64,000 nt of DNA from an uncultured Candidatus Saccharibacteria bacterium (GCA_964404795.1 CAYOLI010000003.1:31621-95620); one strand, 5' to 3'; numbered from the stretch's first letter, positions 1,645 through 29,882 are shown. The notes: a model not told the origin generated them from the sequence alone. A program made the numbers and translations.

Positions 1645-2012
1645 TGGTACCCCAGGAGGGACTCGACCTACCTTCGGCAGGCCCGAAACTTTATCTTTGA
1701 AAACATAGTTTTCAAGAGAAGATTTCCTTACGGATTGCTACCAGCAACCCTCACCCCGACCTTTTCTAGCGTCGGGTGTTCACTTTAATTACCACAACTA
1801 TCTCTTGTCAGACATCGAAGGATAATCATGGTACCCCAGGAGGGACTCGACCTACCTTCGGCAGGCCCGAAACTTCATCTTTGAAAACATAGTTTTCAAG
1901 AGAAGATTTCCTTACGGATTGCTACCAGCAACCCTCACCCCGACCTTTTCTAGCGTCGGGTGTTCACTTTAATTACCACAACTATCTCTTGTCAGATATC
2001 GAAGGATAATCA
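1645..2012 (-). repeat. Two tandem 184-nt units, each ending (tRNA strand) in the last 22 nt of tRNA-Arg(UCU); candidate tRNA-linked structured RNA
   Basis: Units run 1645-1828 and 1829-2012 and differ at only two positions (1692/1876 and 1813/1997). Each plus-strand unit begins tggtaccccaggagggactcga, identical to the tRNA-Arg 3' end at 2013-2034. Several strong hairpins are present and no credible ORF. Confidence 0.85.
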
Positions 2013-2089
2013 TGGTACCCCAGGAGGGACTCGAACCCCCGACCTTGACGTTAGAACCGTCTTGCTCTAATCCACTGAGCTACTGGGGC
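2013..2089 (-). tRNA. tRNA-Arg (anticodon TCT)
   Basis: Reverse complement is GCCCCAGTAGCTCAGTGGATTAGAGCAAGACGGTTCTAACGTC...GGTTCGAGTCCCTCCTGGGGTACCA. It folds as a cloverleaf with anticodon loop GTTCTAA and encoded CCA. Confidence 0.85.
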
Positions 2090-19370: not shown

Positions 19371-19490
19371 TTTGATTGTGGATAAACACTAGCGCCAAAC
19401 GGCAGTTTGTGCTATGGTAACAGTAGTTTAGCTACTAAGAGCACCGACTGACCGCTCTCGCACTAAATAAAAACATTTTAAGAGAAATAA

Positions 19491-19538
19491 GATCCCCCGA
19501 TGGTGATTGAGATATTTTGCCTCGGGGGATTTTTGTTT
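19491..19538 (+). terminator. Rho-independent terminator of the LPXTG gene
   Basis: 9-bp GC-rich stem ATCCCCCGA/TCGGGGGAT (19492-19500 and 19522-19530) followed by TTTTTGTTT. Confidence 0.8.
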
Positions 19539-19604
19539 GATATCTGTTTTTGGTAAACTTTAACGGTGGAAGAGTAGGTTGGGTTTACAACTAGTATAGA
19601 TTTT

Positions 19605-19663
19605 GGCCTCATCGTGCAGGCGGTTAGGACACCGGGTTTTCATCCCGGCAATAGGGTGAGGCC
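19605..19663 (+). pseudogene. T-arm-less copy of tRNA-Glu(UUC), either a pseudo-tRNA or a tRNA-like domain
   Basis: Matches tRNA-Glu at nearly every position over the first 52 nt (five differences, all within the D-arm). It then lacks GTTCGATTCCCCT and continues directly with TGAGGCC, a perfect complement of its own 5' GGCCTCA. No CCA. About 20 nt of the upstream flank is also duplicated. Confidence 0.75.
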
Positions 19664-19766
19664 CGCCAGTGGCGGGGCGCAAGGGAGCCAACTCTTGCAA
19701 ACTGGTTTGCAAAGATGTTGCGTTTGCGCTCGCCGAAGGTGAGTCGGTTCAGAATCGAACCCTCAT
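19661..19766 (+). ncRNA. Candidate structured RNA, homologous to the core of the 184-nt units at 1645-2012
   Basis: Hairpins at 19661-19678, 19693-19715 and 19729-19743, plus 19740-19765. They align with hairpins in the tRNA-Arg-linked units, with compensatory base-pair changes and shared bulges. Confidence 0.6.
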
Positions 19767-19788
19767 AGTTTACAATTAGTACAGATTT

Positions 19789-19863
19789 GGCCTCATCGTC
19801 TAACGGTTAGGACACCGGGTTTTCATCCCGGCAATAGGGGTTCGATTCCCCTTGAGGTCACCA
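19789..19863 (+). tRNA. tRNA-Glu (anticodon TTC)
   Basis: GGCCTCATCGTCTAACGGTTAGGACACCGGGTTTTCATCCCGGCAATAGGGGTTCGATTCCCCTTGAGGTCACCA. Anticodon loop TTTTCAT. Possible promoter TTCAGA-N17-TACAAT at 19748-19776. Confidence 0.9.
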
Positions 19864-29489: not shown

Positions 29490-29882
29490 TGGTGGAGCTG
29501 GCGGGTACTACCCCCGCGTCCATCGGATTTACTGTGACTAGCCGTCTTCGTACATAGTTTATTTAAAAAAGTTTCTTTACTATTTCGTTAATAAAAATAA
29601 ACAAAAACTAACAAGATAGTGCACTCAATATTTTTTAAGAGCAATCATTTGAGAGACGATACTCCGTAGCCAGTAGATATGACACACAAACTAATTCTTT
29701 CTGGCGAGAATTAGGTGTGGCTGTAGTGATTAAGCTACAGCTGGTGCGAAAGCTGGCATGGTAAACATGCTAGCTAATCGCTGAGTAAATGATTTTGCAT
29801 TTATTCGGTTTATCTATAACGCTGATAAGCGGTACGCAAGCTAATCTGTAAATGTCCAATGTCGAGCTTAAAATTCAGCCCC
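29490..29882 (-). ncRNA. ssrA: tmRNA (SsrA)
   Basis: 5' end is GGGGCTGAATTTTAAGCTCGAC. 3' end is GGACGCGGGGGTAGTACCCGCCAGCTCCACCA, a tRNA-Ala-like acceptor with CCA. Internal tag frame at 29798-29730: GCA... AKSFTQRLASMFTMPAFAPAVA, then TAA. Confidence 0.9.

Follow-up and report, generated by a model that had tools for sequence, protein, structure and literature searches.

A conserved three-hairpin module in truncated tRNA gene copies of Saccharibacteria, examined at a tRNA-Glu locus

Several described systems come close to the locus reported here. The E. coli tyrT locus contains 178-bp repeats (rtT RNA), tandem units of about 180 nt which lie directly 3' of the tRNA, end in a copy of the tRNA 3' part and are co-transcribed with it. 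Integrative elements make partial tRNA duplications, with crossover sites in the T-loop and the anticodon loop. In Thermoproteales archaea, non-canonical tRNA introns occupy many cloverleaf positions (D-arm, anticodon loop and T-arm), undergo transposition and have related sequences in different tRNAs; they are cut at a bulge-helix-bulge motif by the splicing endonuclease, and their host genes are functional. MITEs, REP/REPIN sequences, Rickettsia palindromic elements and the IS200/IS605-derived PATEs are short, non-coding, multi-copy and gene-less, have stable folds, are found in reduced genomes and can nest. In Patescibacteria, self-splicing group I introns are reported to be situated in the anticodon loop (position 35/36) of the genes for tRNA-Asn and tRNA-Asp. 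A paper on these introns was the closest one encountered in a full-text literature search, which gave no description of the module presented below.

The unit studied lies upstream of the intact tRNA-Glu(UUC) gene, which is the sole copy of this gene in the window (the whole 64,000-nt stretch of DNA analysed) by both ARAGORN and Rfam. The pyruvate kinase gene (pyk) just 3' of the unit has its best homologues in Saccharibacteria (TM7, Patescibacteria). A 184-nt repeat with a duplicated flank had been predicted from the sequence, and it is real: nucleotides 19621-19656 are identical to 19804-19839 (36/36, tRNA-Glu positions ~17-52), nucleotides 19602-19615 are identical to 19786-19799 (14/14, covering the first 11 positions of the tRNA), and the flank is repeated with two differences (Table 1). 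The start-to-start spacing between the tRNA-Glu copy and the true gene is 184 nt (183-185 nt). The flank remains similar only as far as -21, a point upstream of the likely start site. This probably makes the final duplication, at least, a DNA-level event.

Table 1 Features of the tRNA-Glu and tRNA-Arg loci in the window
Feature	Position	Strand	Basis
Copy of the promoter flank, the 21 nt before the true tRNA-Glu (GTTTACAACTAGTATAGATTT), with the -10-like TACAAC inside	19583-19603	+	19/21 identical to 19768-19788
Truncated tRNA-Glu copy, positions 1-51: acceptor 5' strand, altered D-arm, anticodon arm, variable region, start of T-stem 5' strand	19605-19655	+	exact 14- and 36-nt repeats
Core module of the Glu unit, 92 nt	19655-19746	+	cmsearch match 19652-19754, 87.4 bits, E=4.6e-20 (E-values rough, from a shortened calibration; bit scores large); helices backed by covariation in 84 copies
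Order within the Glu core: GGTGAG, P2 (triloop), GCAAGGGAG, P3, P4 (GAA loop)	P2 19660-19667/19671-19678; P3 19688-19702/19705-19720; P4 19728-19734/19738-19744		
Degenerate T-loop remnant GTCGGTTC, then AGAATCGAACCCTCA, an inverted copy of the uninterrupted T-stem 5' strand/T-loop; jointly a short hairpin	19743-19765	+	
Promoter-like site for the true tRNA-Glu: TTCAGA, 17 nt, TACAAT	19748-19776	+	consensus scan; consensus match only
Intact tRNA-Glu(UUC), the gene to which the unit is attached	19789-19863	+	ARAGORN; Rfam 63.9 bits
Intact tRNA-Arg(TCT)	2013-2089	-	
Downstream-type unit 1: spacer holding a promoter-like site, hairpin P1 (1939-1960), core (1848-1939), copy of the last 22 nt of tRNA-Arg (1829-1850)	1829-2012	-	cmsearch 107.4 bits
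Downstream-type unit 2, tandem copy: core (1664-1755), P1 (1755-1776), tRNA 3' fragment (1645-1666)	1645-1828	-	cmsearch 101.6 bits

Directly 3' of the tRNA-Glu copy there are hairpins over about 90-105 nt. The original prediction regarded the copy as lacking exactly the T-loop and the 3' T-stem, through a precise deletion which spared the acceptor, D and anticodon arms. The junctions point instead to an insertion in a truncated copy. The 92-nt module is inserted at the junction between the T-stem 5' strand and the T-loop, a degenerate T-loop remnant (GTCGGTTC in the window, GTCGATTCC in the orthologous loci L001 and L002) and a short inverted repeat follow it, and nothing of tRNA-Glu 3' of the remnant is kept. 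The arms were not all spared either, as the D-loop is altered (GTGCAGGCGG, as also in L001 and L002, versus GTCTAACGG in the true tRNA) and the anticodon stem of the copy in L002 has been destroyed. Checked against tRNA models, as had been suggested, nucleotides 19605-19664 scored 23.8 bits with the Rfam tRNA model (RF00005), below the gathering score of 29 and with the T-arm skipped in the alignment, and the copy was absent from the ARAGORN tRNA calls. The -35 hexamer of the promoter-like site of the true gene falls within the 3' hairpin of the unit.

In the window, L001 and L002 the gene order is the same: a VirD4/TrwB-like ATPase gene, two ORFs, the unit, tRNA-Glu and pyk-pgk-tpi. The locus had been thought to border an accessory stretch, but the upstream genes are conserved neighbours in these relatives and the locus is thus no accessory-island border. 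The VirD4-like gene agrees with a report that type IV secretion machinery is general in Patescibacteria (bioRxiv 10.1101/2025.01.22.634366). The pyk proteins of the three loci are only ~70-72 % identical, and in a three-way alignment the spacer just 5' of the unit is saturated with changes, whereas the pseudo-tRNA part is kept, including its private D-loop, as are the core junction bases, the 3' hairpin GTCGRTTCMGAATCGAACC and, in the same region, GTCGATTCCGAATCGAACC; P2 and P3 differ by compensatory changes. Judged from this alignment, the Glu copy has been inherited vertically for a long time, and constraint acts on the unit as a whole. A period of 184 nt is common to the Glu and Arg units of the window, as predicted, but it is not constant in the family, being 183 nt in L001 and 192 nt in L002. 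An older, degenerate copy had been suspected at 19566-19583. Its best ungapped agreement (11/18), equalled by 5 % of shuffles, does not exceed chance, the covariance model described below did not match it and it was absent in the orthologues.

The same window contains two further units, in tandem and on the other side of their gene, at tRNA-Arg. Each is 184 nt long, they are 98.9 % identical and both end in the last 22 nt of tRNA-Arg. Their tRNA-derived parts are unlike those of the Glu unit, and a core of ~91 nt is common to all three; the predicted kinship of the Glu and Arg units was confirmed by cmsearch scores of 87-107 bits. There is a promoter-like site (CTGACA, 18 nt, TAAAGT) just 5' of P1 in each Arg unit, at 1966-1995 and 1782-1811 on the minus strand. 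The tRNA-Arg gene is not followed by a terminator, unlike the genes next to most downstream-type units elsewhere.

The core has the order GGTGAG, P2 (8 bp, capped by a triloop), GCAAGG, the long hairpin P3, CGGG, P4 (GCYNGCC-GRA-GGYRRGU) and TCGA. A pattern scan with one genome per species matched at least 119 loci, of which ~85 were genuine and the remainder chance matches with different spans. Among the matches listed, the genuine loci all came from Saccharibacteria/Patescibacteria MAGs or from unclassified or probably mis-binned ones; most genomes carrying cores are MAGs, and the taxonomic range and copy numbers are lower bounds. The core pattern had 0 matches in a viral contig collection. 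The covariance model built from 84 distinct copies gave exactly three matches in the window (87, 107 and 102 bits), i.e. the Glu core and the two Arg cores, and at least 110 copies in 90 related loci (622 kb), and detected no core in six related pyk loci that lack the unit. A search of three regions with the 4227 covariance models of Rfam 15, including self-cleaving ribozymes, returned nothing but tRNA and noise at E<=10.

The prediction of a structured, RNA-like element was borne out by covariation in the 84 copies. The 31 predicted pairs were standard in 97.3 % of cells, compared to 79.3 % in shuffled and 26-49 % in partner-slid controls, two-sided changes occurred in 451 cells compared to 120 expected, and 22 of the 31 pairs showed compensatory changes. 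Two pairs of P4 were kept as G·U in 81/84 and 78/84 copies and A·C was rare, so the fold belongs to the tRNA-sense strand. The unpaired GGUGA, AAGG and CGGG were invariant across these diverged copies. The Glu unit is a genuine member of a previously undescribed and widespread family in Saccharibacteria, a conserved three-hairpin module of ~91 nt located in truncated tRNA gene copies beside the intact gene. Triloops such as C-GAA-G are stable in single-stranded DNA as well, so that the core may fold as RNA or as single-stranded DNA. A conformational switch, in which the 5' GGUGAG pairs with the P4 5' strand, was considered and rejected: the pairing was possible in 85 % of cells but without covariation, and an A remained mismatched when P4 changed.

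The units lie in the tRNA-sense orientation: 143 of the 144 units with a tRNA within 110 nt share the strand of that tRNA among the matches listed. At least 10 tRNA species are involved and the unit flanks match the adjoining tRNA. In the subfamily to which the window copies belong (subfamily 1), insertion is at the T-stem/T-loop junction and two layouts occur. In the upstream type (at least 27 units, including the Glu unit), a duplicate of the promoter flank and of the tRNA's 5' part, which extends to the T-stem 5' strand, is followed by the core, by 7-10 nt left of the T-loop and by the intact tRNA. A short antisense copy of the uninterrupted T-loop/T-stem often follows the remnant (...TCGAATCCC ATTCGAACC...), with the intact tRNA 27-52 nt further on; the remnant and inverted-copy pattern of the Glu unit recurs in about 20 of the 27 upstream-type units among the matches listed. 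The individual z-scores of this fold-back hairpin are weak (mean -0.34), and its support is the recurrent sequence pattern only. The downstream type (at least 32 units, including the Arg units) consists of the intact tRNA, usually with a terminator, followed by P1, the core, a T-loop-to-CCA fragment and a second terminator, and lacks any tRNA 5' half. P1 is formed by the variable region and T-stem 5' strand together with the antisense of both, and is specific for the adjoining tRNA (9.8 with its own compared to 7.5 with other tRNA species). Beside the insertion site, the short fold-back of both layouts repeats the uninterrupted target in antisense, with specificity for the tRNA confined to the downstream type. 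The left flank of downstream-type units was also considered as antisense of the tRNA acceptor 3' strand, an idea that was dropped, the values being 5.06 for the own tRNA and 4.99 for other tRNAs. Short GC-rich hairpins (e.g. GTCCGTCCTGTCTGACAGACAGGCGGGC) were seen inside the T-loop/T-stem fragment after the core in the downstream-type units of L069, L122 and L075.

A sister subfamily (subfamily 2) was recognised from model matches and a metagenome scan for its P4 variant (GGGYCGCGGAACGTGRC), which gave at least 120 further loci. Among the matches listed, its downstream-type units have the core in the T-loop (n=31), while the upstream-type units have it in the T-loop (n=10), the D-loop (n=6), the D-stem 3' strand or position ~26 (n=21) or the anticodon arm (n=5). 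The insertion takes the place of two to four target bases (GGT, GCA, GTT and others) and duplicates none, and the tRNA copy stops about 10 nt past the core, often with a fold-back, e.g. TAGGACACCAGGCTGTCC. Two cores in one pseudo-tRNA occur in L156, L160 and L177, and cores nested inside larger core-like elements in L130, L138, L181 and others. On three metagenome contigs (L169, L190 and L245) subfamily-2 cores share a non-tRNA intergenic context, GGGTGRCG..GGYGG / core / AGCACCC ... GGCAGGACCC, for which no Rfam family was found; the host there may be another RNA gene.

The closest described systems share some features with the family and differ in others. The Arg units resemble the E. coli tyrT repeats, being downstream tandem units of ~180 nt that end in a tRNA 3' segment. 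The Glu unit differs in being upstream of its gene and in copying the 5' part. Compared by description, the tyrT repeats belong to a single locus and are not known to have a structured module common to many tRNA species, a 5'-part version or insertions in the D- or anticodon loop. With the reported Patescibacteria group I introns, the module shares the phylum and the insertion of structured RNA in tRNA gene sequence. A group I intron would have the group I core fold and >200 nt and would interrupt an otherwise complete tRNA, whereas the module has ~91 nt, gave no match to Rfam Intron_gpI at E<=10 and is hosted by a truncated copy beside an intact gene. Like the Thermoproteales introns, the cores are small insertions at many cloverleaf positions with related sequences in different tRNAs. 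Unlike them they are bacterial, and their host tRNA copies are truncated and not functional, so that splicing could not yield a tRNA.

Copy number is dynamic. The window, L001 and L002 have the unit at the tRNA-Glu/pyk locus, L123, L124 and L129 do not, and L125 has a pseudo-tRNA without a core. Tandem arrays of units are common. Cores from separate loci of one genome can be almost the same, even across layouts: the identity is 97.8 % between L086 (upstream type) and L100 (downstream type) and 91 % between the Glu unit of L002 and the Gln unit of L042, compared to a cross-genome median of 73 %. When the ORFs of the 85 loci were clustered, no transposase, integrase or reverse transcriptase recurred near cores; the recurring families were housekeeping ones only (response regulators, histidine kinases, ABC transporters, VanY and MurA-like proteins).

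The reading we prefer, tentatively and with slightly less than even confidence, is that the Glu unit may be a copy of a non-autonomous, multi-copy mobile structured element of Saccharibacteria/Patescibacteria that is co-transcribed with tRNAs. The core would have been copied repeatedly into loop positions of the cloverleaf, replacing 2-4 bases without target duplication; subfamily 1 would enter the T-stem/T-loop junction, and the sister subfamily also the D-loop, position ~26 and the anticodon loop. The genomes seem to depend on one gene copy per tRNA, and consequently only arrangements with an intact gene would survive, which would explain why the module sits in a truncated duplicate. Two such arrangements are envisaged: the promoter and tRNA 5' part upstream of the gene, as at tRNA-Glu, and the T-loop-to-CCA part with a terminator downstream, as at tRNA-Arg. 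The unit is predicted to share the transcript of the tRNA, as a leader if transcription starts at the duplicated promoter or otherwise as a trailer, and RNase P and the 3' processing enzymes would free it. Copying could have proceeded by RNA-level insertion followed by reverse transcription, by transposition of single-stranded DNA or by template switching at tRNA gene hairpins. As a precise origin, none of tandem-inversion duplication, Campbell-type integration of a small circle, hairpin-primed repair or an IS200/IS605-like route fits all junctions.

Among mobile elements, the core resembles the MITE, REP and PATE group in being short, non-coding, multi-copy, stably folded and nestable, in having no gene of its own and in occurring in reduced genomes. 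It differs from MITEs and REPs in that its ends, GGTGAG... and ...GGTRRGTCG, are not inverted and there is no target-site duplication, from palindromic repeats in having three different hairpins instead of one palindrome, and from the whole group in being limited to tRNA-derived sequence and to one orientation. As regards the subterminal hairpins of PATEs, P2 and P4 each form a GCC-NNN-GGY triloop hairpin close to an end of the core, but the long middle P3 also covaries. The varied left flanks, with no fixed target tetranucleotide, and the lack of a Y1 transposase near the cores are unlike the IS200/IS605 PATEs. A Y1 transposase was observed in one unrelated Saccharibacteria locus (L126).

The main alternative, possible though on balance rather unlikely, is that the units form a host small-RNA gene family, in which a functional non-coding core, for instance a catalytic junction or one that binds a protein or ligand, depends on the promoters, leaders, 3' ends and terminators of tRNAs to be expressed, processed and stabilised, and its copies arise by duplication and gene conversion and not by mobility. 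The invariant unpaired bases, the strong covariation and the preservation of the whole Glu unit between distant genomes beside a saturated spacer agree with such a function, and a site within tRNA transcription units would mean high constitutive expression. On the other hand, other relatives are missing the unit at the tRNA-Glu/pyk locus, insertion positions vary, cores are nested or paired in one pseudo-tRNA, near-identical copies at different tRNAs of one genome look like spread, copy number is inconsistent and no gene is associated with the core across the 85 loci. The strong conservation of the junction bases and the long retention despite genome reduction agree with a host function no less well than with selfishness. 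The mobile-element and host-RNA readings are compatible, since old copies, the Glu unit for example, may have become domesticated.

A bolder proposal, which we regard as doubtful, is that the core could represent a new class of mobile RNA which enters exposed loops of folded tRNA sequence (the D-loop, position 26, anticodon loop and T-loop, at which tRNA fragments arise) at the RNA or single-strand level and is fixed only in decoy copies beside a regenerated gene. Alternatively, tRNA-derived flanks, sense and antisense, could confer tRNA specificity on a core that is itself constant and acts by catalysis or by recruiting a protein. In both cases this would be a tRNA-directed RNA system without a described bacterial counterpart.

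It is improbable that the units are integration scars, i.e. partial tRNA duplications of the attL/attR type in which the core is the conserved end of an element whose cargo has mostly been deleted. Such scars would account for an intact tRNA with a displaced fragment that starts at the T-loop, since downstream-type units always carry the T-loop-to-CCA fragment, the classic integrase crossover position, and a second terminator. Accretion downstream of tRNAs, in arrays with different fillers, is likewise familiar from integrative elements, and in L042 an island with a large serine recombinase, which has a homologue in L009, separates a downstream-type unit from tRNA-Gln. However, the Glu unit duplicates the 5' part and the promoter flank, not the 3' part, the insertion sites include the D-loop and position 26, and units of ~184 nt have no room for a gene. 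The Glu unit has no tRNA 3' repeat flanking an integrase gene, no recombinase recurs near the 85 loci except in L042 and L009 (serine recombinase homologues were present in just three loci), and the viral contig collection gave no match to the core pattern. Covariation with conserved G·U pairs reflects a strand-specific, RNA-type fold, and not recombinase arm sites. At 1891-5100 of L042 there are, together with the serine recombinase gene, two pairs of perfect inverted repeats of 165 nt (1987-2151/3714-3878) and 120 nt (3874-3993/4981-5100); the segment may be invertible or recently rearranged, or the repeats may stem from the assembly.

That the copy is a functional T-arm-less tRNA-Glu derivative, with its acceptor, D and anticodon arms retained and an accessory RNA attached, seems very unlikely. 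The anticodon arm of the copy is the same as in the true tRNA and the predicted 7-bp GGCCTCA/TGAGGCC pairing does exist in the window, but it is coincidental: its 3' strand is supplied by the invariant TGAG and the first bases of P2 and not by an acceptor, and it competes with the covariation-backed P2. The pairing is not conserved, with TGAGAAA in L001 and TGAAAAC in L002. The altered D-loop in all three copies, the destroyed anticodon stem of L002 and the lack of a tRNA 5' half in downstream-type members also speak against it. A randomly decaying tandem duplication or assembly artefact without conserved structure is hardly credible, even though core-less partial tRNA duplications also occur in these genomes (L125), since the identical locus on an independent ENA contig (L003) rules out an artefact, a covarying fold is common to over 200 copies from many assemblies, and comparison with relatives, in which L001 and L002 conserve the unit, excluded random decay.

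If the preferred reading of a mobile, tRNA-associated element is correct, Saccharibacteria and probably other Patescibacteria would carry hundreds of copies of a structured RNA element whose sole habitat is truncated tRNA gene copies. This would explain why annotation of tRNA loci in these genomes is confused by tRNA-like fragments and tandem repeats, and the covariance model can be used to annotate the core copies. It becomes testable how a 90-nt non-coding element targets tRNA loops and yet leaves an intact gene, and whether it is a parasite of tRNA operons or a domesticated RNA in a genome of ~1 Mb under strong deletion pressure. Natural competence is known in Saccharibacteria (PMC10633639). 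The family may also point to a new route for RNAs containing tRNA fragments.

Other elements were noted in the window and at the related loci. Between a PKD-domain ORF and the Glu unit there is a conserved non-coding block at 19372-19460, TGTGGATAAAC.ACTAGC..GTGCTATGGTAAC..TAGTTTAGC..GAGCACCGACTGACCGCTCT, followed by a hairpin and T-run at 19489-19533. L001 and L002 retain the block almost unchanged, and it can still be recognised in L123 and L129; it has no counterpart in Rfam and may be a regulatory element or a further small RNA. A full-length tmRNA, missed by ARAGORN, was located at 29490-29882 on the minus strand (Rfam, 79 bits). Unrelated fillers occur in the downstream-type layout, ending in a tRNA 3' fragment and terminator, in L008 (from tRNA-Val to the core unit), in L092, and downstream of tRNA-Glu in L124 and L125, so partial tRNA duplications seem to be general in these genomes. 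A second small insert, CCCCAC(A)AAA...TTTGCGGGGACCCC, is present in the anticodon loop of truncated tRNA-Gln/Glu copies, with or without the core, in L053, L108, L122 and L125, and may be another loop-targeting element or an intron remnant.
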